Shown: positions 2,066 to 15,124 of the stretch, one piece after another
Layout: each line of letters opens with the position of its first letter
How positions within the stretch are numbered: the stretch's first letter is position 1
Virus genome (UHGV): UHGV-0073333
Strand: one strand, 5' to 3'
Length of the DNA stretch: 15,124 nt
DNA from: a virus
Made by a program: the position numbers and the translations under genes
Notes under the pieces: generated by a model
What the model saw: only the letters and a program-made list of their open reading frames with translations
Database searches by the model: none
What the model was told of the DNA's origin: nothing

Positions 2066-2429
2066 AAATGCAGAAATGGCGCTTAGCTCCGCAATCGGAG
2101 AGCAGGTGGCAAAGATTGCTGGTGCTGTGTGGATTCATAACCTTCATTCTACTGGTGAAGAGAAAATGGCAATTCAGACGCCAGAGGGACGCACCATTAC
2201 TACATCTCTGAAGCCGTCAGATGTTTGTGATCTGATTTGCGCATTCATGTACCCAGCAATGAGGACTGCCCACGGCGATAAGTGGAAACTTGCGACAACC
2301 GCTGAATTTGATATGTGGCTAAACAATGATGGCATGCTGACTGATTACGGAATAACCAAGTGGCAGATGCTGGTTAGCCATATCGCAAACGCTATAGACC
2401 ACGTGGGGTACGGTGATGCGAAACATTGA
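2058..2429 (+). CDS. Hypothetical protein (123 aa)
   Basis: ATG 2058 with GGGAGG at 2047-2052; overlaps upstream stop 2063-2065; ORF track. Confidence 0.6.
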   Translation: MRENAEMALSSAIGEQVAKIAGAVWIHNLHSTGEEKMAIQTPEGRTITTSLKPSDVCDLICAFMYPAMRTAHGDKWKLATTAEFDMWLNNDGMLTDYGITKWQMLVSHIANAIDHVGYGDAKH

Positions 2430-5172
2430 TCTTATCCGTCAGGTTATCAGTGCGTCTGAAAACAACTGGCCTCATGTGCTGGGCTGCCTGAACATAAATG
2501 TCCCTGACTCTCCGCGCCGTCATGCTCCCTGCCCTGCATGTGGGGGCAAAGATCGATTCCGGTTCGATGACAACGGGCGCGGTAGCTTCATCTGTAATCA
2601 GTGCGGCGCTGGTGATGGGCTGGATTTAATTAAACGCGTAAATAACTGCGACACAACAGAGGCGGCGCTTCTTGCCGCTGATGTTCTGGGTATTGATTAC
2701 CGGACAACGGAAACACCAGAAGCCACCAGCCAGAAACGGGAACAACTGGAAACCGAGCGCCAGCGACGCGAACAGGAGCGCCTGAAAAGGGCAGAGAAGG
2801 ACGAACAACAAAGACGGGATACGTTTTCCCGTCAGTTTGATGACATGCGCAGAAAGGCTGTAAACGGCAAATCTGATTATCTGGTTGCGAAAGGGGTAGG
2901 TGATTTTACATTCCCCGTGTTGCCCGATGGATCTCTGTTGCTGGCGCTGGTGGATAAATCCGGCGCAGTAACAGCAGCACAGACTATTACCTCACATGGT
3001 GAAAAAAGACTCCTGACAGGTTCAGCAAAGCGGGGGGCATATCACGCCATAAACGCACCAGAAACAACACAGAGCATCTTAATCGCAGAAGGGCTGGCAA
3101 CGGCATTATCTGCCCATTTAATTCGTCCAGAGGCGCTGACAGTGGCGGCGATTGATGCCGGGAACCTGTTATATGTCGCCCAGGTACTGCGGGATAAATT
3201 TCCTTCAGCACAAATCATCATTGCTGCGGATAACGACCACAGCGAAGGAAGACAAAACACGGGGAGAATAGCAGCAGAAAAAGCAGCTTTATCTGTTTCT
3301 GGATGGGTGGCATTACCCCCGACAGATCACAAAGCAGACTGGAATGATTACCACCAAAAACACGGCATTAAATGCGCCACAGAAGCGTTCAATAAGTCAA
3401 TGTACCAACCACAGGGTAATGGCGTGAAACAGGAGCCACAGACCATTGAGGGAAGCGATTTTAAGGTTATGGATACCGACCCACTGAAACCAAGAATAGA
3501 AAGCCGCGAGGATGGTATTTATTGGGTATCTCCGAGAGCTGACAGCCAGAGTGGAGAAATCATCAATAACGAAAGCTGGTTATGTTCTCCGTTAAGCGTT
3601 ATCGGTACTGGCAGAGACGATAAAGACCAGTATCTCATTCTTCGCTGGCTGTCGTTTGGTTCTGAAACGCCGACAACCGCTGCCATTCCACTGGCTGATA
3701 TTGGTGAACGTGAAGGATGGCGCACACTTAAAGCTGGTGGGGTAAATGTCACGACCAAAAGCAGCCTCAGAGCAATACTGGCAGACTGGCTACAACGCAG
3801 TGGCTCTCGTGAATTGTGGCGTGTTGCTCATGCCACTGGCTGGCAATGCGGAGCGTACATCATGCCTGATGGGGAAATCATCGGAACACCTGAAAATCCT
3901 GTGCTGTTCAGCGGGAGAAGCTCAGCCGCAGCCGGATATACCGTCTTAGGGAGCGCGAAAAGCTGGCGTGATAACGTGGCGCGTCTGGCCTTTGGTAACT
4001 ATTCAATGATGACCGGGATCGGCGCAGCACTGGCAGCGCCATTGATTGGGCTGGTGGGCGCTGACGGGTTCGGCATTCATTTCTATGAGCAGTCGAGCGC
4101 AGGGAAGACCACCACGGCAAACGTGGCGAGCAGCTTATACGGCAACCCTGATTTACTGCGGCTGACGTGGTACGGAACCGCGCTGGGGCTGGCAAATGAG
4201 GCCGCCGCCCACAATGACGGACTAATGCCGCTTGATGAAGTTGGTCAGGGCGCTGATCCTGTCAGCGTTTCACAGTCTGCCTATGCGTTATTTAACGGTG
4301 TAGGGAAACTGCAAGGCGCTAAAGATGGTGGAAACCGGGATCTAAAACGTTGGCGTACAGTGGCAATCAGCACCGGAGAAATGGATTTAGAAACATTTAT
4401 CGCTACTTCCGGGCGAAAAACCAAAGCCGGGCAACTGGTGCGACTGCTGAATATTCCGTTGAGTAAAGCAGTACGCTTTCACGATTACCAGAACGGAAAA
4501 CAGCACGCAGACGCACTGAAAGACGCTTACCAGCATCACCACGGCGCGTCCGGGCGTGAGTGGATTAAATGGCTGGCAGACCACCAGCAACAGGCTATTA
4601 AAACCGTTCGTGATTGCGAAAGCAGATGGAGAAGCCTGATCCCATCCGATTATGGTGAGCAGGTTCACCGTGTAGCCGCGCGATTTGCCATTCTGGAGGC
4701 CGCATTGTTGTTAGGCGAGGTTGTAACAGGCTGGGATGCTCAGACATGCCGTGATGCGATACAGCACAGCTATAACGCATGGTTGCGCGAGTTCGGCACA
4801 GGTAACAAAGAGCATCAGCAGATTATTGAACAAACGGAGGCATTTCTTAATGCCTATGGGCTTAGCCGTTTTGCACCATTTCCATACAGCCCGGCAGATT
4901 TGCCCATCAAAGATTTAGCCGGATACCGTCAGCGTGGAGAACATGACGAAAGCCCAATGATTTTCTACACATTCCCGGCCACATTTGAAAAGGAGATCGC
5001 ATGTGGTTTCAACGCAAAACAGTTTGCTGAAGTGTTGAAAAAAGCCGGGATGCTAACCCCACCAAACAGCGGTCGTGGATACCAAAGAAAATCACCACGT
5101 ATTCAGGGACGACAAATAAACGTTTATGTACTCAATTACCAGCCAGGAGATTATAACTCATCTGAAGAATGA
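2416..5172 (+). CDS. Bifunctional primase-helicase replication initiator, P4 alpha-like (zinc ribbon + TOPRIM + P-loop NTPase)
   Basis: 918-aa ORF; CxxC...CxxC zinc ribbon (CPACGG...CNQCG); TOPRIM signatures (IAEG glutamate, AADND DxD); Walker A-like SSAGKTT; start ATG 2416 (GTG 2413 also possible) overlapping the upstream stop. Confidence 0.88.
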   Translation: MRNIDLIRQVISASENNWPHVLGCLNINVPDSPRRHAPCPACGGKDRFRFDDNGRGSFICNQCGAGDGLDLIKRVNNCDTTEAALLAADVLGIDYRTTETPEATSQKREQLETERQRREQERLKRAEKDEQQRRDTFSRQFDDMRRKAVNGKSDYLVAKGVGDFTFPVLPDGSLLLALVDKSGAVTAAQTITSHGEKRLLTGSAKRGAYHAINAPETTQSILIAEGLATALSAHLIRPEALTVAAIDAGNLLYVAQVLRDKFPSAQIIIAADNDHSEGRQNTGRIAAEKAALSVSGWVALPPTDHKADWNDYHQKHGIKCATEAFNKSMYQPQGNGVKQEPQTIEGSDFKVMDTDPLKPRIESREDGIYWVSPRADSQSGEIINNESWLCSPLSVIGTGRDDKDQYLILRWLSFGSETPTTAAIPLADIGEREGWRTLKAGGVNVTTKSSLRAILADWLQRSGSRELWRVAHATGWQCGAYIMPDGEIIGTPENPVLFSGRSSAAAGYTVLGSAKSWRDNVARLAFGNYSMMTGIGAALAAPLIGLVGADGFGIHFYEQSSAGKTTTANVASSLYGNPDLLRLTWYGTALGLANEAAAHNDGLMPLDEVGQGADPVSVSQSAYALFNGVGKLQGAKDGGNRDLKRWRTVAISTGEMDLETFIATSGRKTKAGQLVRLLNIPLSKAVRFHDYQNGKQHADALKDAYQHHHGASGREWIKWLADHQQQAIKTVRDCESRWRSLIPSDYGEQVHRVAARFAILEAALLLGEVVTGWDAQTCRDAIQHSYNAWLREFGTGNKEHQQIIEQTEAFLNAYGLSRFAPFPYSPADLPIKDLAGYRQRGEHDESPMIFYTFPATFEKEIACGFNAKQFAEVLKKAGMLTPPNSGRGYQRKSPRIQGRQINVYVLNYQPGDYNSSEE

Positions 5173-5194: not shown

Positions 5195-5310
5195 GGTGTT
5201 GGTTCAGTTGGTTCAGTTGGTTCAATTTGTAAAGAGTATTGTTTTATAAGGATTTTATTCTTTTTATTGAACCAACACTGAACCAACAACACGGTATTTT
5301 GAACCAACAC
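5195..5310. repeat. Iteron cluster A: 3 tandem GTTGGTTCA 9-mers, AT-rich spacer, 3 inverted TGAACCAAC 9-mers; ori/crr-like
   Basis: Tandem 9-mers at 5198-5224; inverted copies at 5268-5276, 5279-5287, 5300-5308; 5195-5236 is a perfect 42-bp inverted copy of 13753-13794. Confidence 0.75.
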
Positions 5311-5934: not shown

Positions 5935-6396
5935 ATGGAACTAAAATTTATTGATAACCCTGTGCGATTACAGGCCTTTCTTAACGAGCCAGGCAATACC
6001 GAAAATATTGTTGAGCCGGGGCACACGTACTACATCAAGCCTGATGCGGTATATCTCGGCATCTACGAAGGATTAGTGCTGGCTGGCGTTCATGAAGTGC
6101 GTAACTTCTGGCATAGCGTTGTTGAATGCCATGCGGTGTACGACCCCGGATTCCGTGGTGAATATGCACTGCAAGGGCATCGATTATTCTGCAAATGGCT
6201 TCTCGAAAACTCACCATTCCTTAACAGCATTACCATGGTTCCTGACACCACCAAATACGGACGGGCAATTATCCGTTTGCTTGGCGCTACCCGTGTTGGT
6301 CACCTTGATGATGCTTATATCAGATGTGGTAAACCCGTCGGCGTAACGCTTTATCAGTTAACTCGGCAACAATATAAGGAATTCAGCGAATGTTAA
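5935..6396 (+). CDS. Hypothetical protein (153 aa); occupies the gp14 position of a P22-type ejection cassette
   Basis: ORF track; starts 16 nt after the upstream stop; its stop overlaps the next start (ATGTTAA). Confidence 0.7.
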   Translation: MELKFIDNPVRLQAFLNEPGNTENIVEPGHTYYIKPDAVYLGIYEGLVLAGVHEVRNFWHSVVECHAVYDPGFRGEYALQGHRLFCKWLLENSPFLNSITMVPDTTKYGRAIIRLLGATRVGHLDDAYIRCGKPVGVTLYQLTRQQYKEFSEC

Positions 6397-7043
6397 TTAC
6401 CCACATAGCTCATAAACATCTCAATCGTGCCGTATACGAAAAAGGCGGTGATGGTGGTGCCTCTAAAGCTCAGGCGAAGGCCCAGCAGCAGGCAATTGAT
6501 TTGCAGCGCGAGCAGTGGAATACGGTGATGAATAATCTCAAGCCGTATGCAGAAGTCGGATTGCCTGCTTTACAACAACTACAAGGACTGATGACTCTGG
6601 AAGGGCAGAATAAAGCCGCGAATGATTTCTTTGGTTCTGGTTTATATAAAACACAGGCAGATCAGGCCCGTTATCAGAACCTTGTCTCAGCAGAAGCTAC
6701 CGGGGGGCTTGGCTCAACAGCTACCAGTAACCAGTTATCTTCCATTGCGCCCATGCTTTATAACAATTGGCTTAGTGGGCAAATGCAAAATTATGGAAAC
6801 CTGCTAAATGTCGGGATGAATGCGGCATCAGGGCAGGCAACAGCAGGGCAACTCTTGCAGGGGCTTGGCGCTATTCGTGCAGGTCAGGCGCAGCAGCCAT
6901 CCAGTCTTGCGCGTGGTATTGGTGGGGCGGCATCAGGCGCTTTAGCGGGTGCGCAACTTGGTTCCGTTGTTCCGGGTATAGGTAATGTCGCCGGGGCTAT
7001 TGGTGGTGGGCTTATTGGTCTTGTTGGGGGGCTTGGATTCTAA
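6390..7043 (+). CDS. Gly/Gln-rich protein (217 aa) with a glycine-zipper hydrophobic C-terminus; ejection-protein-like (gp7-like by position and size)
   Basis: ORF track; C-terminal GGLIGLVGGLGF; TAATG overlap with the next gene. Confidence 0.7.
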   Translation: MLITHIAHKHLNRAVYEKGGDGGASKAQAKAQQQAIDLQREQWNTVMNNLKPYAEVGLPALQQLQGLMTLEGQNKAANDFFGSGLYKTQADQARYQNLVSAEATGGLGSTATSNQLSSIAPMLYNNWLSGQMQNYGNLLNVGMNAASGQATAGQLLQGLGAIRAGQAQQPSSLARGIGGAASGALAGAQLGSVVPGIGNVAGAIGGGLIGLVGGLGF

Positions 7044-8464
7044 TGGCGACATGGCAACTTGGCGGGCTGCCTAGCATGGCACCGCAAAATGATAATGCTC
7101 CTCGTTCTTCCGTTCCTCAGCCTGTGCAGTATCAGCAGCAGCCAAACGTAGGTTTAATGGCGCTACAGGGGCTAAGAGGCGTTGCTGAGATTAATCAGCA
7201 GGCACGTCAACAACAGCGTAAAGCAGAGTTTCAGAAAGCATATGCCGGGGCTTTTGAGTCTGGAGACAGAAACAAAATGCGCAGTCTTATTTCTGAGTAT
7301 CCAGAAGAATTTGAAAGCGTTCAGAAAGGGATGGGCTTTATTGATGACGACCAGAGAAATTCTATTGGTCATCTTGCGACTAGTGCTCAAATCGCATCTT
7401 CGCTCGGAACTGGGGCATTTGGAAAATTCATAGCAGATAACGAAGATGAAATGCGTCGCTTGGGAATTTCTCCTGAGTCTGTTGCCGAAATGCATGTTAA
7501 TGATCCACAGGGATTCCAGCGGCTTGCTGGTAGTATGGCACTGTTTTCTCTCGGTCATGAGAAGTATTTCGATATCAAAGATCAAATGGAAGGTCGGGAT
7601 ATTGAGCGTGGCAAGTTGGCAGAAACAATCCGCAGCAATCAGGCTGGCGAAGCACTTCAGGCGAGAGGGCAGGATATTAGCCGAGCAAATGCGTTAACGT
7701 CAGCATATGCACCAACAGCAGCAATGCAGAATTACAATCAGTACGCTCAAATGTTAAAGGCGGATCCAGAGGGGGCGGCGGCATTTGCGGCAGCGGCTGG
7801 AATTAATACAAACGCCAAAAAATTAATGAGTGTTAGAGAAAACGATGATGGCACTGTCACAAAATACTACACAGACGGAAGTGAAGAGCAGGGAAAACTA
7901 AACCAGCCAATATCTGGAGATGGGTTTCGTCCAATAGCTTTGCCAACAGCCCAAAAGATCATGGAAAAGTCGCCAGAAGGGGCTAAAAAAGCTGCTGGAT
8001 TTGCATACAGGGTTAGGGATGCTCTTGATTCAATAGATACACTGAAAGACCAGCTTAGCCCACAGCGAGTGGCGATCATTAATAATGCTTTGGGTAATGG
8101 GACGCTGGCTAACTTAACGCTCAGCCCAATAGAGCAGCAATACGTTGTTAATGCTAATGACGCAATAATGGCAATACTCCGTCAGGAAACAGGGGCATCT
8201 ATCCTACCAGCTGAAATGTCCAAATATTATCAAATGTATTTCCCTCAGCCTGGTGATTCCACAAAAACCATTGATACCAAGCGCCGGAAGATGGAAAACC
8301 AGTTCAATTCGCTGAAAGCTGCTTCTGGTCGAGCTTATGATGCTTTGCGGGTTATTTCAGCAGTTGACAGAGGAACTTCTTCTTCGTCGCAGACATTGCC
8401 GCAATCTGAGCAGGTATCACAGCCAGCAGCCAGCAGTAATTTTTCTTCACTATGGGGTGATTAA
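7043..8464 (+). CDS. Low-complexity Gln/Ala-rich protein (473 aa); ejection/internal virion protein-like (gp20-like by position and size)
   Basis: ORF track; translationally coupled on both sides; no enzymatic motifs seen. Confidence 0.78.
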   Translation: MATWQLGGLPSMAPQNDNAPRSSVPQPVQYQQQPNVGLMALQGLRGVAEINQQARQQQRKAEFQKAYAGAFESGDRNKMRSLISEYPEEFESVQKGMGFIDDDQRNSIGHLATSAQIASSLGTGAFGKFIADNEDEMRRLGISPESVAEMHVNDPQGFQRLAGSMALFSLGHEKYFDIKDQMEGRDIERGKLAETIRSNQAGEALQARGQDISRANALTSAYAPTAAMQNYNQYAQMLKADPEGAAAFAAAAGINTNAKKLMSVRENDDGTVTKYYTDGSEEQGKLNQPISGDGFRPIALPTAQKIMEKSPEGAKKAAGFAYRVRDALDSIDTLKDQLSPQRVAIINNALGNGTLANLTLSPIEQQYVVNANDAIMAILRQETGASILPAEMSKYYQMYFPQPGDSTKTIDTKRRKMENQFNSLKAASGRAYDALRVISAVDRGTSSSSQTLPQSEQVSQPAASSNFSSLWGD

Positions 8465-10143
8465 TGGCTAAAGCATGGAAAGATGTTATCGCTTCTCCAC
8501 AGTATCAGGCGTTAGCACCAGAACAAAAAGCGCAGGCTCAAGAGCAATACTTCAATGAAGTCGTGGCCCCGCAAGCCGGAGAAAGTGTAGAGCAGGCTAA
8601 GCAGGCTTTTTATGCTGCCTATCCACTACCATCAACGAATGAAATAGACCGATCCCAATCAGCAACTCAAAATATTCAACATACATCATCTGATAATTCT
8701 CTTGCGTCAGGGTATGCAAAGTTAGCTACTCAGCAAAGAGAGGGGCTTGAGCGTTCAGCAGAACAGGGAGCCAGTCTTGGGGCTGCGATGCGCGATGCTA
8801 TAACAGGCGAAAGCCGAATGACTCCAGAGATGGAGAGACTGCAAAATGTCGCCTCTGCCCCAGAATTGAACTCACTAAGCATGGATGCCCTAAAGGCTGG
8901 ATGGTCTCAACTTTTCGGCTCTGACGCGTCTCAGGAAAAGATTCTTCAGGGAATGGGGGCGACATTAAGGCAGGATGAGAAGGGGAATACTATCGTTTCT
9001 CTGCCATCAGGTGATTATGCCCTGAACAAGCCGGGTTTATCACCGCAAGACCTGACTTCGTTTCTTGCTAATGCGTTGGCGTTTACACCAGCGGGCAGGG
9101 CTGGAACGGTGCTTGGTGCCATAGGAAAATCAGCAGCTACAGATTTAGCACTACAGGGAGCCACCAGCCTTGCTGGTGGAGAAGATATTGATCCGTTACA
9201 AACGGTAATTTCTGCTGGCATTGGTGGTATTGGTAAGGGGCTGGAAAATACAGCGAGTGCGGTTTCGAGGGCTGTTCGTGGTGATATGTCGCCTGAAGCA
9301 AAGGCTGCTGTCGACTTTGCATCGGAAAGAAATCTGCCGTTAATGACCAGTGACATGCTGAAAGATAAAACCTTTATGCAGAGTCAGGCTCAGACATTAG
9401 GCGAAAGAGTTCCTTTTTTTGGAACCGGTAAGAATCGGCTGAATCAACAACAAGCACGAGAAAATTTAGTCAGAACATTTAGCGATGGTCTGGGTGGCAT
9501 TTCTGATAAACAGCTTTATGAATCTGCGACTAAAGGGCAACAAAAATTCATTGAGGCAGCAGGAAAGCGATATAACCGCATAATTGACGCTATGGGGGAT
9601 ACCCCTGTCGATCTCTCAAACACGGTAAAAGCTATCGACAATCAGATTGCCGTGTTAAGCCGCCCGGGCAAATCTCAGGATAGAGCCGCGGTAAAAGTCT
9701 TGCAGCAATTTAAAGACGATATCACCAGCGGACCAAATGACCTGCGTCTGGCGAGGGAAAACAGAACCGATCTTCGAAAGCGATTTATGGCGTCATCTGA
9801 CACTGTTGATAAAGATACGCTCCAGAAAGCCAGCGATATTATCTACAAGGCATATACGGCGGATATGAAAAAAGCCGTAGCCAAAAATCTTGGAGCAGAC
9901 GAAGCCATTAATATGGCAAGGGTTGATCGCTCATGGTCTAAATTCAATGACATGATGGGAAGAACGCGCGTTCAAAAGGCAATAGCCAGCGGCAAGGCCA
10001 CGCCTGAGGATGTAACAAAACTCGTTTTTAGCCAAAGCCCATCAGAACGTTCTCAGCTTTACAGGCTTCTGGGTGACAATGGTAGGGAAAAAGCACCAGC
10101 AGCCATAGCTGCTGCGTTAGGCAAAACGCACGAGCGGCCATAG
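8464..10143 (+). CDS. Low-complexity Ala/Gln-rich protein (559 aa); ejection/internal virion protein-like (gp16-like by position)
   Basis: ORF track; ATG 8464 overlaps upstream stop (TAATG), GGGGTG Shine-Dalgarno-like sequence at 8451-8456. Confidence 0.78.
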   Translation: MAKAWKDVIASPQYQALAPEQKAQAQEQYFNEVVAPQAGESVEQAKQAFYAAYPLPSTNEIDRSQSATQNIQHTSSDNSLASGYAKLATQQREGLERSAEQGASLGAAMRDAITGESRMTPEMERLQNVASAPELNSLSMDALKAGWSQLFGSDASQEKILQGMGATLRQDEKGNTIVSLPSGDYALNKPGLSPQDLTSFLANALAFTPAGRAGTVLGAIGKSAATDLALQGATSLAGGEDIDPLQTVISAGIGGIGKGLENTASAVSRAVRGDMSPEAKAAVDFASERNLPLMTSDMLKDKTFMQSQAQTLGERVPFFGTGKNRLNQQQARENLVRTFSDGLGGISDKQLYESATKGQQKFIEAAGKRYNRIIDAMGDTPVDLSNTVKAIDNQIAVLSRPGKSQDRAAVKVLQQFKDDITSGPNDLRLARENRTDLRKRFMASSDTVDKDTLQKASDIIYKAYTADMKKAVAKNLGADEAINMARVDRSWSKFNDMMGRTRVQKAIASGKATPEDVTKLVFSQSPSERSQLYRLLGDNGREKAPAAIAAALGKTHERP

Positions 10144-10604
10144 TTCAGAATGCTGTAGATAAGGCGACTGATCCGTCTGGAAATATCAGTGTTGAGAAGT
10201 TTATTAATGCGTTACACCGGAACAGGAAGCAATCAGCAACTTTCTTTAAAGGCGTACATGGAAAGGAACTGGACGGCGTTATTAAATACCTCAACGATAC
10301 AAGACACGCGGCAAAAGCGAACGTTCAAAACTTAAATGGTCAGCAGCTTTATGGATTGTTAGTTGGTGGTGGCATCATAAACGCAGCAGTATTAGCGGGG
10401 ATGCTAAAAACGGCTGCGTTTGTTGTTCCTGCTGCTGGTGCCGTAGGCGGAGCAGCGAAGGCATACGAAAGCCCTGTTATACGAAATGCCTTGTTACGTC
10501 TGGCAAATACGCCAAAAGGTAGCACAGCATATGACAGAGCGATCAGTACGGTCACACAATCGCTCACCAGAGTCGCACAGGCATCACAAAAAGAAGCTCA
10601 ATAA
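10086..10604 (+). other. Open frame of 172 codons with no canonical start, overlapping the 3' end of the 559-aa gene; probable frameshifted C-terminal extension or frameshift-disrupted gene
   Basis: Stop-free from 10086 to TAA 10602-10604; first ATG/GTG/TTG only at 10356; operon terminator sits after 10604, not after 10143; encodes a Gly/Ala-rich hydrophobic segment. Confidence 0.45.
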
Positions 10605-10606
10605 CT

Positions 10607-10631
10607 GGTTAGCCACGGATGGCTAATTTTT
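10607..10631 (+). terminator. Rho-independent terminator of the plus-strand cargo operon
   Basis: Stem TTAGCCA (10609-10615) / TGGCTAA (10620-10626), loop CGGA, then TTTTT at 10627-10631. Confidence 0.55.
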
Positions 10632-11042
10632 GTTCTTTGCTCTCATCCACAGGTAAAGAAGGGCAAGAACAAGACAAAAAACAGAGAATAGATAACCTAC
10701 CTCATATGATGCGCCAAAAAAATTAGCTATTGATACGGGCAAAAAAGCTGAAGCGATCAAAATTGAAAGGCAAAAAATAAGACCAGTAATATAGTTTATT
10801 AAATTCTTAAATGAGAAACGTTTTGCTTGATTTATGGTCTTAGCGAACGATCGCTTAACGACGGATAAAAGCAAATAGATGGCGACAGTTGCTAATGCCC
10901 CTTTCCACCAGTCTGGATATAGTTTTGCGACAATCAGACCAAGGAAAACCATGATGACAGCCTGAGCATTCACACCAACCCTCCCTTTAGCGTTGTTTAG
11001 ATTGGCAATCATCATATATCCAAGACATGGCATTTGGTACAT
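10623..11042 (-). CDS. Small inner-membrane protein (about 139 aa, about 4 hydrophobic helices); start uncertain
   Basis: ORF track 10623..11210 begins at a TTG; first ATG is at 11042; strongly hydrophobic; AT-rich; no clear Shine-Dalgarno sequence. Confidence 0.5.
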   Translation of the reverse strand: MYQMPCLGYMMIANLNNAKGRVGVNAQAVIMVFLGLIVAKLYPDWWKGALATVAIYLLLSVVKRSFAKTINQAKRFSFKNLINYITGLIFCLSILIASAFLPVSIANFFGASYEVGYLFSVFCLVLALLYLWMRAKNKN

Positions 11043-11165
11043 AGCTTGGGTCGGGATTTCAAATCCGCCCCCGTTGATGGGGTCGTTACAGTACGCGCAT
11101 ATCCGCTTTATGTGAAACAGGAAGATTTTTCTGATATCACTGCCACAGCAAAACACCAATTTCGA

Positions 11166-11181
11166 GACAAGTACGCGCGCG
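11166..11181. repeat. 16-bp direct repeat GACAAGTACGCGCGCG, copy 1
   Basis: Exact copy at 11452-11467; partial third copy ACAGTACGCGCA at 11088-11099. Confidence 0.6.
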
Positions 11182-11451
11182 AGGGGTATCAGTTGCAAAA
11201 AATTTTGCAACTACGTCCGACCAATACACACACGATGGCGGGGGATACCATAAAACTGTTCTCTACATGAGACAGAGTGGTGGTGATGTGTTGATTATCG
11301 GCCTATATGCGCACAGGACGCGCTATGACAATGTTTTATGCGGGTACACCAATCACATGTATCTGGTGTGATAAATCGCGTTACATGACCTTTCATGTTG
11401 TGCTGGTGGTTATCACGACGTTCTGAATCTGGCTTTTGTCTGATATTTTGC

Positions 11452-11467
11452 GACAAGTACGCGCGCG
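11452..11467. repeat. 16-bp direct repeat GACAAGTACGCGCGCG, copy 2
   Basis: Exact match to 11166-11181, 286 bp apart, in a non-coding region. Confidence 0.6.
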
Positions 11468-11804
11468 TAACATCGAAATTATCGGATGGCGTATGTTGCT
11501 GGCAAGATAAAGTCGGCGTAATACAAAGGCGTTACTTGATAGCAGCAAGATTACAACAATGGTTGTTGAATTTGAGCGATGTAAGGAATTGATTTAGGGA
11601 GGCGCTGATGGCTAAAAAGTTCCACTACCAGCGGATGAATGCGCCAGCGATGGCCGTTTGGTAGTAAAAGAGGAGCCATTCCTCAATCAGTTGAATACAT
11701 TATGCCAACTAAATGGGTGGGGGCACTGTGTGGGTATTCAGCGGTGACGGTATTTTTTAAGCCAAGGACTATCCGTAGCAGGGGGACTCATTTTGAAATA
11801 TTTA

Positions 11805-12242
11805 TCATATGTAACTTATTATTTTAGATAAAGATTTCCAGTTAAAGAAAAAAGTTATCATTGATATAATCAAATATGCCCCTGCGAGTAGCAGGGCATA
11901 ATAATCCAGAGGCAGATTGCTGACAACAGGGGCAAACATCGAGATCATTGCTAATAGGCAGGCTGTGATCAGCGTAGTTCCTGTATCAAAAAGCCCCTCA
12001 ATAATGCCTTTTAGTACTCCGTTACTTTTTAGAGCGCCTACAATTCCCTTTGAACTATCAAAGCTACTTAGCATGGTGACTGATGCCAAAACAAAACCAA
12101 AGAGAACTCCAGAAATAGTTGAAAGAGCACCAGCAGCCGAAATGACAGCATTGTGATCTAGGTCGTGTAAAAAATGGGCACCAGCAATAGCCATAGCTAG
12201 AGCAAACAATGACTTGGCAGCAAACAATTTCCGAGAACTCAT
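11805..12242 (-). CDS. Small membrane protein (145 aa, 3-4 hydrophobic helices); second gene of the two-gene cargo operon
   Basis: ORF track; ATG with AGGA 7 nt upstream, 12 nt after the stop of the 361-aa gene; AT-rich. Confidence 0.75.
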   Translation of the reverse strand: MSSRKLFAAKSLFALAMAIAGAHFLHDLDHNAVISAAGALSTISGVLFGFVLASVTMLSSFDSSKGIVGALKSNGVLKGIIEGLFDTGTTLITACLLAMISMFAPVVSNLPLDYYALLLAGAYLIISMITFFFNWKSLSKIISYI

Positions 12243-12254
12243 AATGTATTCCTG

Positions 12255-13340
12255 TTACGTTTGACTAACCAAATAGTACTGGGTTAGATACCTAAGGTTG
12301 TCATTCTTTGCTTGTAGCATAGCATTTTTAACGTCAGTATCGGTCGGATACCCATCTGCTTGGATAGGCACCATCTTCTTTACCGTAAGAACTTCGTCTA
12401 CAAGACTTTTCTTCTTTTTATCGCCCTGAGCAACAACATTTGCTTTCTCAAAAGTTAAACGACCATCACCACCAGGGAACTTTTCTAGCATCTCCTTAAG
12501 GCTTTTTTTAACGTCATCCTCAAGCCATCCCTTTGCTTTTCTTTTTAATGGAGAATGTCCGCGTAACGAAATAGTCAGGTGGCTTGAACTGGTGCCTCTG
12601 ATCATCTCAATCATCTGATTCGCGAACATTCCATCGAGTTGATACTGTGCGGCATTGAAGTTTCTTGGGATGGCCACAGAAATCTCGCAGCTTCTTAGAT
12701 TGGATCCAGTTTCGAGTAGTTCTTTGATGCTTTCTTCTTTCCAAATGGCTTCAAAAGAAACAGGGACTCCGCGATCACTGGAGTTGAAAAGAAGGAAGGC
12801 TAAGTCACTATGGCGTGGACCTAAATGATTTAAAGACAATACTAGAATGTCTGTCTGAGGATAATAAATAAAGTATGTACGTTCTGAAAGAGTCTTTGCC
12901 CCGGCTAGAGGGATTTTCTCTTCCACCCACTCTTTATCTGTAATATATGCCAGTGTTGCGCTTTTTCTTCTTCGAGACATGAATCCGAAGTAGGAGCCAT
13001 CCTCGGGTGAGATGTCTAGAAAATGAATTTTAAGTTCTCTTTCACCAAAGTCTGCATAGTGGGTCATCTTGAAGTCTTTAGAACACCGATCATACAGATT
13101 TTTAAAGGCCTCTGCGGTTAACCCCTTGTTACTAGTGCGAATATTCTCAGAGCTTGTGTAAAAGCCCACCCTTACAGATTTCAAACTTTGATCTTTTGGT
13201 GCCACAGTCATTTGAGCTCCATTGTACTCTGCGATAGTTTTTGCACACCTTGAAATCAAAATCTCCATGTCAGTCACGAGAAAATAACTATGGATGAAAC
13301 CCATCAAAGGCATTGAATACAGGTGGCTTTTGAGAATCAT
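12255..13340 (-). CDS. Hypothetical soluble protein (361 aa), no recognisable catalytic motif; first gene of the two-gene cargo operon
   Basis: ORF track; about 40% GC by eye and AGA/AGG arginine codons suggest horizontal acquisition. Confidence 0.8.
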   Translation of the reverse strand: MILKSHLYSMPLMGFIHSYFLVTDMEILISRCAKTIAEYNGAQMTVAPKDQSLKSVRVGFYTSSENIRTSNKGLTAEAFKNLYDRCSKDFKMTHYADFGERELKIHFLDISPEDGSYFGFMSRRRKSATLAYITDKEWVEEKIPLAGAKTLSERTYFIYYPQTDILVLSLNHLGPRHSDLAFLLFNSSDRGVPVSFEAIWKEESIKELLETGSNLRSCEISVAIPRNFNAAQYQLDGMFANQMIEMIRGTSSSHLTISLRGHSPLKRKAKGWLEDDVKKSLKEMLEKFPGGDGRLTFEKANVVAQGDKKKKSLVDEVLTVKKMVPIQADGYPTDTDVKNAMLQAKNDNLRYLTQYYLVSQT

Positions 13341-13689: not shown

Positions 13690-13795
13690 TTGTTGGTTCA
13701 AAATGAGTTGATGTTGGTTCAATATTTTAGAAAAAACACAATAAAAACAACGCTCTTTACAAATTGAACCAACTGAACCAACTGAACCAACACCT
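13690..13795. repeat. Iteron cluster B (inverted copy of cluster A); ori/crr-like
   Basis: GTTGGTTCA at 13692-13700 and 13713-13721; three tandem TGAACCAAC at 13765-13791; 13753-13794 is the exact reverse complement of 5195-5236. Confidence 0.75.
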
Positions 13796-13827: not shown

Positions 13828-14115
13828 ATGATAAGGGACAGGAAAGCTGAAGAGCTGGAGTCAAAAGGGCTATACCGGAGAGCTGCCGCACGATGGGCAG
13901 AAGTCATGATGCTGGCAAATGGCGATAAAGAACGTGAACATGCAGCAAACAGGCGCTCTGAATGTATCCGTAAGGCGGCACGCCCACCAGCAACTACAGA
14001 CAGATTCGGAGATTTAAGACAGGCAGTTAAGCGAACTCATTCGGCTCTTGGTATGGATGAGGAAGCGAGAGGGTACTTCAGGCGTTATCGCGATAAAGAT
14101 TGCCAGAGACAGTAA
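13828..14115 (+). CDS. Small basic protein (95 aa), PerC-like transcriptional regulator (family assignment tentative)
   Basis: ATG 13828 with GAGAGG at 13817-13822; TATAAT at 13809-13814; N-terminal pattern AEELESKGLYRRAAARW recalls the PerC/Pch family. Confidence 0.6.
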   Translation: MIRDRKAEELESKGLYRRAAARWAEVMMLANGDKEREHAANRRSECIRKAARPPATTDRFGDLRQAVKRTHSALGMDEEARGYFRRYRDKDCQRQ

Positions 14116-14170
14116 TGCTCTCTCTGTTTTGGCAAATTACCCTTCACTTTGAAGGGAGCGGAGCTATAAA

Positions 14171-14413
14171 AATGGTTTTAGGTACATTCCTCAAATTGAG
14201 GTTTCCGAAAATATCAGCGGGTTAGCGATTAATCTGGCGAGTAATTAAACTGCGAAAATTTCGTAGGGGGTTACGAAAATTTCGTAGGTCTACTCATGGT
14301 TTAGGCTTACTTTCCCGACATCCCCCAATGGGGGGGTCGAAATAATCAATGGGTTAGGCTTACCTCCCCCCATTTCCTGCATTGCAGGTTTTCGAAAGAA
14401 TCAATGGGTTAGG
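14171..14413. repeat. Four direct copies of ATGG(G)TT(T)AGG in the integrase-upstream region; candidate arm-type or operator sites
   Basis: Copies at 14171-14185, 14295-14310, 14344-14358, 14399-14413; the last two are an identical 15-mer AATCAATGGGTTAGG 55 bp apart. Confidence 0.5.
14253..14288. promoter_or_regulatory. Tandem palindromic operator-like sites CGAAAATTTCGTAGG x2, 21-bp period
   Basis: Exact 15-mers at 14253-14267 and 14274-14288; same core as the palindrome at 5418-5434. Confidence 0.4.
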
Positions 14414-14814
14414 TCATCGTGCAAATTTGCACTCTGCCAGCCAACGCAATTTCTCGTTGGCGGAAATATCAGGTATTTACTGAACGAACGGTCTACCCGC
14501 CTGTTCAACTACCAGTTGTACATGGCTGCTTTATGTGCAAATGGTGGTGAGAGAAAATTGTTTGGGGGTACTTTTGGGGGTATCTCCAAAGATGTAATGG
14601 GGAAATGTCTTTATATATCAATGTATTTTTATTGTTTGTTTTGTTCCTATTATCGCACCATTCTAACGTCTCCCCAAGTCTACTCAAGTATTTAAAAACC
14701 TCTTATAATCAGTATATTAATGCCCCTTTTAGTCTTTTGACGTCTATTTAAGTACCCCAAACTCTACAAGCAATTGAGGGGATTTGCTGTTCAGTTTAGT
14801 GGAGATACCCCCAA

Positions 14815-15124
14815 GTGAAACTCAATGCCCGTCAAATAGACACTGCCAAGCCAAAAGAGAAGGCTTACAAGTTGGCTGATGGTGGTGGTCTGTACCTCCT
14901 GGTAAAACCTGGTGGAGGAGAATATTGGCGTCTCAAGTATCGTGTAGCTGGTAAAGAGAAGCTGTTAGCACTAGGTGTGTATCCTGAGGTCACCTTAGCT
15001 GATGCTCCTGCAAAACTTGAAGAAGCTAAAAGAGGTATCTCTGGGGGAATCGATCTGATGGAAGTGAAGCGAGAGGAAAAGATTGCCCGGGAAACGCAGT
15101 TAAACAACACCTTCAAAGATATTG
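14815..15124 (+). CDS. int: Tyrosine integrase, P4-type (DUF4102 arm-binding N-terminal domain); 5' partial, continues past window end
   Basis: GTG 14815 with GGAG at 14801-14804; N-terminal KPKEKAYKLADGGGLYLLVKPGGGEYWRLKYRVAGKEKLLALGVYPEV matches the conserved P4-family integrase signature. Confidence 0.85.
   Translation, partial: MKLNARQIDTAKPKEKAYKLADGGGLYLLVKPGGGEYWRLKYRVAGKEKLLALGVYPEVTLADAPAKLEEAKRGISGGIDLMEVKREEKIARETQLNNTFKDI

Follow-up and report, generated by a model that had tools for sequence, protein, structure and literature searches.

Background

[quoted passage not shown] One of them, EcCIMP1 of Escherichia coli MP1, is integrated at a tRNA-Thr gene between proA and yagU and adjoins an "unclassified genomic island" with MarR, vat, and IS1 (PMC11773190, ISME J 2025). 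It excises, circularizes, and is transduced only upon induction of the P22-like helper phage Kapi1, and its flanking direct repeat, TCCTATTATC, was mapped by PCR and Sanger sequencing of the attP excision product (PMC11773190). Here, we analyzed the UHGV virus genome UHGV-0073333, a stretch of 15,124 nucleotides that we call the window, and in particular its interval 14116-14814, located between a perC-family gene and an integrase-like open reading frame (ORF). This interval is almost certainly a chromosomal seam, in which attR of an EcCIMP1-like PICI is fused to attL of a decayed island carrying vat. It also holds candidate arm sites for the PICI integrase and a separate array of palindromes paired with consensus sites for the integration host factor (IHF), which most likely descends from the lambdoid phage gene roi. 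We regard this explanation, taken as a whole, as very likely.

The seam between tandem islands and its core were already published in 2025, in the description of EcCIMP1, which mentions neither the arm motif, nor the IHF sites, nor the array (PMC11773190). For the "helper-embedded" PICIs (HE-PICIs), attP was described as carrying a co-oriented, tandemly doubled motif once per arm, at -81 +/- 2 and +132 +/- 2 from the center of att (PMC10111431, NAR Genom Bioinform 2023). The same study describes "damaged" tRNA fragments at the attR of PICIs whose target is a Thr-tRNA gene (PMC10111431).

A thrW-derived core joins two islands

Over its final 1.8 kb, the window is 99.9% identical to a stretch of the E. 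coli EcPF14 chromosome, and many other complete genomes contain close copies. The locus is chromosomal in every complete genome examined, with 3050 of the 3053 matching places lying on chromosomes. At its left edge, the EcPF14 locus (L001, where the window position equals the L001 position minus 6701 in the right-hand part) has proB, proA, the tRNA-Thr gene thrW, an intact tyrosine integrase gene (int1), and a gene for an AlpA-like helix-turn-helix (HTH) protein. These are followed by antA, ash, several small ORFs, a TOPRIM/DUF927 primase gene, and four P22/HK620-like genes (14, 7, 20, and 16). The right part comprises three ORFs of unknown function on the opposite strand, perC, the interval 14116-14814, a 336-bp integrase pseudogene, MarR, vat, IS1, and yagU. 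The element thus has the layout expected of a Gram-negative PICI: int1 and the AlpA-like HTH gene in the EcPF14 locus, the primase gene at 2413-5172 of the window, and an iteron-type origin.

A repeat search on the EcPF14 locus revealed that the end of thrW and the ~170 bp that follow it recur just upstream of the truncated integrase. The core of this repeat spans L001 2626-2642, inside thrW and ahead of int1, and is found again at L001 21346-21361, i.e., at 14645-14660 of the window (+ strand), the intact thrW copy lying 18.7 kb upstream. When aligned, the window copy, TCCTATTATCGCACCA, corresponds to TCCTATTATCGGCACCA, which comprises the 3' strand of the thrW T-stem, the 3' strand of the acceptor stem, the discriminator base, and CCA. 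In other words, it is the 3'-terminal 16 nt of thrW (TCCTATTATCG-CACCA) minus one G. The sequence after the core is ~85% homologous to the DNA downstream of the real thrW. Hence, a direct repeat of a tRNA 3' end bounds the element, with the intact tRNA gene at the other end beside the integrase, and the core at 14645-14660 serves as both PICI attR and vat-island attL. Two comparisons delimit the junction from outside. In strain KK19-02, the same PICI occurs alone and the homology stops at window position ~14666, beyond which the chromosomal DNA is unrelated. In the copies of the PICI found in viral contigs, the homology likewise ends at the core repeat. The acceptor-stem G is missing from the attR copies of the window, EcPF14, KK19-02, and MP1, and is intact (TCCTATTATCGGCACCA) in a relative from a viral contig (L031). 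The loss of this single base matches the damage of tRNA fragments reported for PICIs (PMC10111431).

We retrieved the MP1 locus and found the same layout as here. Both elements lie at proA-thrW...yagU and share the gene order int, alpA, antA, ash, TOPRIM/DUF927 primase, P22-like DNA-transfer genes, and perC, followed by a truncated second integrase and then MarR, vat, and IS1. They also have in common the core repeat TCCTATTATC and the doubled arm motif GGGGGTAY described below. They differ in size (18.7 kb here against 19.96 kb for EcCIMP1), in the cargo upstream of perC, and in the slot between perC and the att arm. In MP1, this slot contains three cargo genes and no array, whereas the array fills it here as well as in EcPF14, KK19-02, and ABU 83972.

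Judging from this layout, int1, which lies outside the window, almost certainly recombines the core at 14645-14660 with the copy inside thrW, as happens in EcCIMP1, and this releases an 18.7-kb circle. The vat island to the right of the seam is an immobile, dead neighbor.

Candidate arm sites for the integrase

The motif GGGGGTAY has three copies in the 15-kb window, and all of them are in the interval, at 14564 (+), 14576 (+), and 14805 (-). The first two form a doubled site, TTTGGGGGTACTTTTGGGGGTATCT (14561-14585, + strand), whose center lies 79 bp to the left of the core. Of the eight copies in the 41.8-kb EcPF14 locus, six flank the two cores in the same pattern, with a tandem pair on each side of the core and an inverted copy abutting each integrase start codon. 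The partner pair in attL, beside int1 (L001 2755-2778), is centered 132.5 bp right of the core. In EcCIMP1 of MP1, the attR arm has diverged almost fully, yet ATGGGGGTACTTTTGGGGGTATCT is kept exactly, at an unchanged distance from the core. A sister element integrated at yicC has an integrase with only 29% identity and an unrelated right arm, which lacks GGGGGTAY. The motif is thus present in both arms, rare elsewhere, fixed in spacing, and missing where the integrase is a different one. The repeat ATGGGTTAGG, found further left in the interval, shows no such behavior. Because of this distribution and conservation, we take GGGGGTAY rather than ATGGGTTAGG to be, quite probably, the arm-type site of the integrase. 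Its N-terminal arm domain would dock on the doubled motif at about -79 and +132 bp from the core, and the inverted copy over the integrase start codon suggests autoregulation. These assignments of proteins to sites are ones that we infer. Between the arm sites and the core, the DNA is A/T-rich and IHF-like, and includes a near-consensus IHF site with one mismatch (TATCAATGTATTT, 14616-14628, + strand), a candidate for the bend of attP.

The geometry of the doubled motif (-79 and +132.5) and the damaged Thr-tRNA fragment in attR recall the HE-PICIs. The motif itself is another one (TGTATTGC in the HE-PICIs, GGGGGTAY in our element), the integrase clade and its target are not the same either, and the extra inverted copy on the int start codon is a feature of the present element. 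A more distant parallel is the attP of phage lambda, which spans about 240 bp and combines arm-type Int sites with the IHF sites H1, H2, and H'. The general logic is the same: a core is flanked by arm sites that take the integrase N-domain, and IHF bends the DNA in between. In contrast to lambda, the palindrome and IHF array of our interval lies beyond the integrase-specific arm, at a distance of 165-455 bp from the core, and has no tie to the integrase.

On the other side of the seam, the attL arm of the vat island and the integrase leader (14661-14814, + strand) align at 85% with the thrW-int1 spacer. This arm contains an IHF consensus (AATCAGTATATTA, 14707-14719, + strand), an arm-like site in inverted orientation (AAGTACCCCAAA, 14750-14761), what is left of the doubled arm motif after the loss of 12 nt and mutation of the rest (TTGAGGGGATTT, 14774-14785), and the inverted arm motif that abuts the integrase start codon (TGGAGATACCCCCAA, 14800-14814). 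The decay of the motif pair fits an immobilized remnant. The gene that follows, int2 (14815-15124, + strand), is indeed the P4-type integrase that had been seen downstream, but it is a truncated 5' remnant with an Arm-DNA-bind_3 domain only (Pfam, E = 7e-24), annotated in EcPF14 and MP1 as a 336-bp pseudogene without the C-terminus. The att core is crossed by spurious ORFs (14505-14687 on the - strand and 14516-14695 on the + strand). In the solo PICI (L002 ~21010-21030, and at the same position in L030), we observed a perfect IHF consensus, ACCATTTAAATCAAGTAGTTA, in the chromosomal DNA just past the attR core. This region may be the arm of yet another decayed thrW island.

These results can be set against the original prediction, a reading of the window from its letters, which took the interval for an attP-like region (from an excised or plasmid form or from tandem elements) involving no tRNA, in which ATGGGTTAGG and the neighboring repeats served as arm sites. 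Part of it agrees with our analysis. The repeats are real and adjoin an integrase-like ORF, ARAGORN found 0 tRNA genes in the window and none in 13 related loci, and the elements are in tandem, the PICI being followed by the vat island according to the EcPF14 gene order. The lack of any T-arm or acceptor signature did not hold, since 14645-14660 consists of the 3' strands of the thrW T-stem and acceptor stem followed by CCA, with one G deleted. The search it recommended for a core shared with a tRNA 3' end found this core here and in thrW. The att core inside the interval, which the prediction itself had named as a finding that would overturn it, refutes the tRNA-free attP-like region, and the chromosomal location speaks against an excised or plasmid form. 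Finally, the repeats travel with unrelated integrases and are missing from EcCIMP1, which has the same integrase type, and GGGGGTAY, which had gone unflagged, is a better candidate for the arm site. We therefore consider that reading to be scarcely credible.

An array of palindromes and IHF consensus sites

The left part of the interval (14165-14479) consists of an array of four intact units and one decayed unit, with two near-palindromes in tandem inside the extension of the first unit. An intact unit has a palindrome with a 5-7-bp stem, an A/T-rich spacer of 5-10 nt, and a perfect IHF consensus, WATCARNNNNTTR, and all units are co-oriented. The repeat is 22-23 nt long, or 39 nt when the palindrome is included, and neighboring units are typically 54-55 bp apart, both here and in relatives.

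All units are on the + strand. The first one, unit A (14165-14267), holds the palindrome CCTCAAATTGAGG (14189-14201) and the IHF consensus TATCAGCGGGTTA (14212-14224), with an A/T-rich spacer between them, and further includes a roi-homologous flank and a 3' extension that is conserved. An 80-bp block of unit A is 95-96% conserved in O157 and other strains. The tandem CGAAAATTTCGTAGG sites that had been noticed at 14253-14288 are present as two near-palindromes starting at 14253 and 14274, 21 bp apart. They form jointly a long inverted repeat (14250-14288) that is paired in both the minimum free energy (MFE) and the centroid fold. The decayed unit, ACTCATGGTTTAGGCTTAC (14289-14321), has lost its IHF consensus through an indel and substitutions, and is 86% identical to 14349-14369. 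Two units were correctly anticipated by their stems. The first (14322-14375) has the palindrome or hairpin CCCCCAATGGGGG(GG) (14322-14336) and the IHF consensus AATCAATGGGTTA (14344-14356), and the second (14376-14419) has the palindrome CCTGCATTGCAGG (14376-14388) and again AATCAATGGGTTA (14399-14411). The last unit (14420-14479) contains the palindrome TGCAAATTTGCA (14420-14431), a hairpin GCCAACG-N8-CGTTGGC (14440-14461), and the IHF consensus TATCAGGTATTTA (14467-14479). The spacer that follows (14480-14535) is kept along with the array in the yicC sister element (L005), and the homology to that element ends near 14535.

The direct repeat that had been counted in four copies is in fact the 3' half of the IHF consensus site in this longer unit. 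Three copies stand, ATGGGTTAGG at 14349 and 14404 and ATGGTTTAGG at 14296, against 0.75 matches expected in the window, and all three fall within 118 bp. The copy at 14171, ATGGTTTTAGG, is an indel variant in the roi-homologous flank and not a true unit. The window has eight matches to WATCARNNNNTTR when 1.5 +/- 1.2 are expected, and none of 200 shuffles reaches eight. Five of them, all on the + strand, are within 14212-14719 (at 14212, 14344, 14399, 14467, and 14707) and have upstream spacers such as TTTCCGAAAA, GGTCGAAAT, and TTTTCGAAAG. Hence, these sites combine the consensus with the upstream A/T-rich tract, as IHF sites do. Judging from the sequence, the array would fairly probably bind several IHF dimers.

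We then considered the association of palindromes and IHF sites across loci. Of the 48 distinct consensus sites in the arrays, taken regardless of hairpins, 26 are preceded by a perfect 5-bp hairpin whose end lies 8-11 nt upstream, while this is the case for only 3 of the 34 consensus sites located elsewhere, which we used as a control. The stems found at this offset are of at least seven different kinds. In an alignment of 12 units, chosen partly for having hairpins, all five stem pairs show compensatory double changes, 96.6% of the cells are paired, and none of 500 shuffles matches this. In the same alignment, the A-T-C-A and T-T-A positions of the consensus are invariant and the N4 positions vary. 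On both strands, the folding of the region is better than that of its shuffles (z = -4.0 and -3.4), which palindromes would lead one to expect. We found no match in the window to Rfam 15 at the gathering score, and only chance-level matches at E <= 10. The scan for promoters and terminators gave nothing above chance in the array. Reading the units in the frame of roi meets stop codons, and their 54-55 bp spacing gives no consistent frame.

Among the known systems that come close to this array are the RIP/RIB elements (BIME-1) of E. coli, in which an IHF site is flanked by repetitive extragenic palindromic (REP) sequences; these are about 35 nt long, G+C-rich, and fixed in sequence. Both are repeated non-coding modules that pair short palindromes with an IHF consensus. 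The REP palindromes are scattered between chromosomal genes rather than arranged in tandem in satellites, and there is no sequence similarity between the two.

Distribution of the array

Parts of a 547-bp region of the interval are found in 1,382 of the 5,426 complete E. coli genomes. Beyond the present PICI, other satellites carry the array at their integrase-distal end, and its number of units varies. It is found in a PICI beside yejO, in PICIs located in the late genes of lambdoid prophages, in one beside clpS, and in the yicC element, which keeps it despite the divergence of its integrase. In EcCIMP1, the array is missing and cargo genes fill the slot. Since it is kept with unrelated integrases and missing from an element with the same integrase type, the array is independent of the integrase and is not one of its features. 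And because EcCIMP1 is functional without it, the array is dispensable for excision, circularization, and transfer. In cos-type PICIs (L003, L004, and L010), its orientation relative to the adjacent operon is inverted with respect to this element, which favors a role at the DNA level, or none, over a role as sense RNA.

Arrays of the same kind are present in two Xenorhabdus genomes, one of them spanning about 1.1 kb. In Xenorhabdus anantnagensis (L007 4000-5170) and in L006, this is a non-coding stretch packed with hairpins, with at least four units of hairpin plus IHF consensus. One unit, TTCCTCAAATTGAGGTTTCCGGAATTATCAATAAGTTA, is almost identical to unit A of E. coli, and there are further repeated hairpins, GGTGAAGATCACC and CACCTCTTTAAGAGGTG. 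We also observed array-bearing PICIs inside truncated lambdoid late genes, in the portal region (L004 4779-6370, L014, and L015); PICIs in lambdoid late genes are those named helper-embedded (PMC10111431). In L004, a small ORF downstream of the rpp/terS-like gene has its TAA stop inside the GTTA of an IHF-consensus unit.

The array resembles an internal site of roi

The only homology of the array to phages is a stretch of 50 bp in unit A, at 82% identity, inside the part of roi that encodes the N-terminal Rha domain (in HK620, Stx phages, and others). Individual units match about 40-65 bp within different roi alleles, and the homology is to the palindrome-plus-IHF segment inside the gene. In the relative L030, the array begins with 44 bp that agree with the roi of Kapi1 and HK620 at 44 of 44 positions, CCTCAAATTGAGG included, the Kapi1 roi being 98.6% identical to that of HK620. 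The commonest unit of cos-type PICIs matches the roi allele of Stx1_1649 at 37 of 38 positions. The roi of HK022, the allele that served for the first studies of Roi, has CCTGCATTGCAG and then the IHF consensus AATCAATGATTTA at the equivalent position, and matches the unit at 14376. The Rha/roi-like gene of mEp044 has CCCCCAATGGGG at the same codons, and matches the unit at 14322. In roi as in the array, the IHF consensus lies 9-11 nt downstream of the palindrome, and three palindrome types of the array recur in three alleles. Both the palindrome and the IHF consensus are missing from roi alleles of the 933W/Lahn1 type. The roi relatives from viral contigs are all 97-100% identical, and hence uninformative for a test of conservation.

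In the phages, there is a single site, and it lies inside the coding sequence of a Rha-type DNA-binding domain. Here, by contrast, a satellite without a roi gene has non-coding copies arranged in tandem at its end, four of them intact and one decayed. A tblastn search of the array-bearing loci gave only roi fragments of 21-23 amino acids and no further roi sequence, and the element encodes no protein with a Rha domain. We tried the AntA of the satellite as a homologue of Roi, and rejected it for lack of similarity. These comparisons indicate that the array most likely descends from the internal palindrome-plus-IHF site of lambdoid roi genes.

The palindromes fall in a hypervariable segment of Roi (about residues 22-65) located between identical flanks. 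We observed that the hypervariable wing codons of roi/Rha form the palindrome, with compensatory substitutions between alleles, in HK620 (L034 1220-1260), HK022 (L123), mEp044 (L121), and APSE-7 (L119). The palindrome takes the forms CCTCAAATTGAGG for PQIE, CCTCAATCTGAGG for PQSE, CCTGCATTGCAG for PALQ, and CCCCCAATGGGG for PPMG. This suggests that the binding site and the specificity-determining segment of Roi are inherited as one cassette. In the roi of Stx1_1649 (L116, a Stx1a-converting phage), at ~position 130, there is an in-frame TAA inside the palindrome CCTTAAATTGAGG, a possible trace of gene conversion in which a satellite array was the donor and the phage gene the recipient.

Possible roles of the array

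Roi reportedly binds inside its own gene beside an IHF site, and IHF is said to stabilize the complex. On this basis, one possibility, tentative and less probable than not, is that satellites carry tandem operator-plus-IHF sites, with one palindrome type per Roi specificity, as a sensor or sponge able to cover several helpers. Each palindrome would be the operator of one Roi allele. The array would capture Roi, IHF would lock the complex, and the cycle of the satellite would be coupled to the early lytic program of the helper or would tune it, so that the satellite could time its own cycle or modulate the helper. That three palindromes of the array have counterparts at the same codons of three roi/Rha alleles (HK620/Kapi1, HK022, and mEp044), in the hypervariable, specificity-determining part of the DNA-binding domain, is in line with this idea, as are the common 9-11 nt offset of the IHF consensus and the presence of roi in Kapi1, a proven helper. 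Yet the binding of Roi to the palindrome is an assumption, the sole proven PICI-helper pair (EcCIMP1 and Kapi1) works without the array, the 933W/Lahn1-type alleles lack the site, and the spacer and IHF parts of the CCCCC and CCTGC units have no phage counterpart that we could find. Several further points weigh against parts of our main explanation. The dyad symmetry cannot separate the formation of hairpins from binding by a dimeric protein, and the covariation carries the ascertainment mentioned above. The array could be neutral, given that it is dispensable in the functional EcCIMP1. At the arm, MP1 does not conserve the sequence of the near-consensus IHF site at 14616; the stretch is A/T-rich there as well.

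In the neutral case, repeated recombination between satellites and lambdoid phages would have left short fragments of roi that were then duplicated locally and that serve no function. This would account for the homology to coding sequence, including 22 bp of additional roi flank at the first unit, for decayed copies such as that at 14289-14321, for the different numbers of units among strains, and for the functional EcCIMP1 without the array. The in-frame stop in the Stx1_1649 palindrome suggests two-way exchange. We nevertheless find such debris a doubtful explanation: just the palindrome-plus-IHF segment is retained, with no other roi sequence by tblastn, its dyad symmetry is maintained through compensatory changes, the IHF consensus positions are kept while N4 varies, neighbors are regularly spaced by about 54 bp, and arrays of the same kind exist in Xenorhabdus. 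A role of the array as RNA is unlikely. It could be a structured 3' untranslated region, a stack of terminators or insulators, or a small RNA between the last PICI gene and attP/int, where it sits in the circular form. Its folding is significantly better than that of shuffles, TTTT follows several hairpins, and one unit of L028 pairs only via a G-T wobble on the + strand. Against this, Rfam and the terminator scan were negative, the stems have just 5 bp, and the inverted array of the cos-type PICIs means that a sense role is not conserved. IHF sites occur in lambda cosB and in many replication origins, and the array is at the distal end of the satellites, near rpp/terS-like genes in the cos-type PICIs, which raises the question of a packaging site (cos or pac) or an origin. 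This is very improbable. The array is not a cos site because the cos-type PICIs have a lambda-like cosN about 1 kb away, beyond the rpp/terS-like gene; searches for the lambda and P2 cosN gave no match in the window or in L001, and EcCIMP1 is transduced without the array. Nor is it an origin, as iterons of the PICI type are located away from it, at 5198-5308 and, in a second copy, at 13692-13791. A resemblance to P22 pac was weak and was dropped, as the array is also found in cos-type PICIs. The remaining probability goes to an architectural role or to one outside those considered here.

Other features of the PICI

The iteron TGAACCAAC has eleven exact copies in the window against 0.1 expected, divided between the two clusters just mentioned. 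In each cluster, an inverted and a direct set flank A/T-rich DNA. The first is directly past the stop of the primase gene and fits the published layout of PICI origins. The second is upstream of perC, 8.5 kb from the first, an arrangement reminiscent of ori and crr in P4. EcCIMP1 of MP1 has both clusters as well.

Homologues of the P22/HK620 genes 14, 7, 20, and 16, which encode head-completion and DNA-ejection proteins, are found at 5935-10143, with matches to phrog_651 and phrog_598 and 34% identity to HK620 gp20 over the N-terminal ~250 amino acids. The gp16-like gene is truncated here and full length (2.7 kb) in KK19-02, MP1, and CE-O153H30. A satellite that supplies its own ejection proteins is unusual; the presence of such genes was noted, without explanation, for EcCIMP1 (PMC11773190).

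Between the ejection genes and perC, there is a variable cargo slot (10143-13340), whose content differs in EcPF14, KK19-02, CE-O153H30 (an ImmA/IrrE pair), and MP1. In the window, it contains three ORFs on the - strand (10623-11210, 11805-12242, and 12255-13340), for which we found no match in Pfam or, in a scan for defense functions, in PADLOC. Two of them match PHROG families of unknown function (phrog_8552 and phrog_7651), and no PHROG family matches the third. The last gene of the PICI is the perC-family gene (13828-14115, + strand; Pfam PerC, E = 3e-33), also annotated as PerC in EcPF14. A hairpin with a 7-bp stem, CCCTTCActtTGAAGGG (14140-14156, + strand), follows 25 nt past its stop and is present in the MFE and centroid folds. 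It may mark the end of the perC transcript, although it has no T-run and was not called by the terminator scan.

Implications

The seam illustrates how a mobile PICI and a dead virulence island (vat) can be stacked at one tRNA gene. Our analysis provides a concrete candidate attP architecture for the integrase of this PICI, with a 16/17-bp thrW core, the doubled GGGGGTAY at -79/+132, and a copy at the start codon, that is directly testable. It also extends the doubled-motif geometry of the HE-PICIs to another integrase clade. As an addition, this architecture is modest. In the literature searched, in which we looked for the unit sequences and for IHF or Roi in connection with PICIs, we found neither the hairpin/IHF array nor its descent from roi, and no satellite-borne array of regulator-binding sites was described there. 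The array is a non-coding module, with regular perfect IHF sites and covarying palindromes, and at least part of the 547-bp region is present in about a quarter of the complete E. coli genomes. The roi gene is itself a poorly understood, IHF-linked gene of lambdoid phages that the PICI family's proven helper carries as well. Should the array bind Roi, it would give a handle on the function of Roi and on the way in which satellites read their helpers. A Roi sponge, if true, could bear on the helper cue for Gram-negative PICIs.

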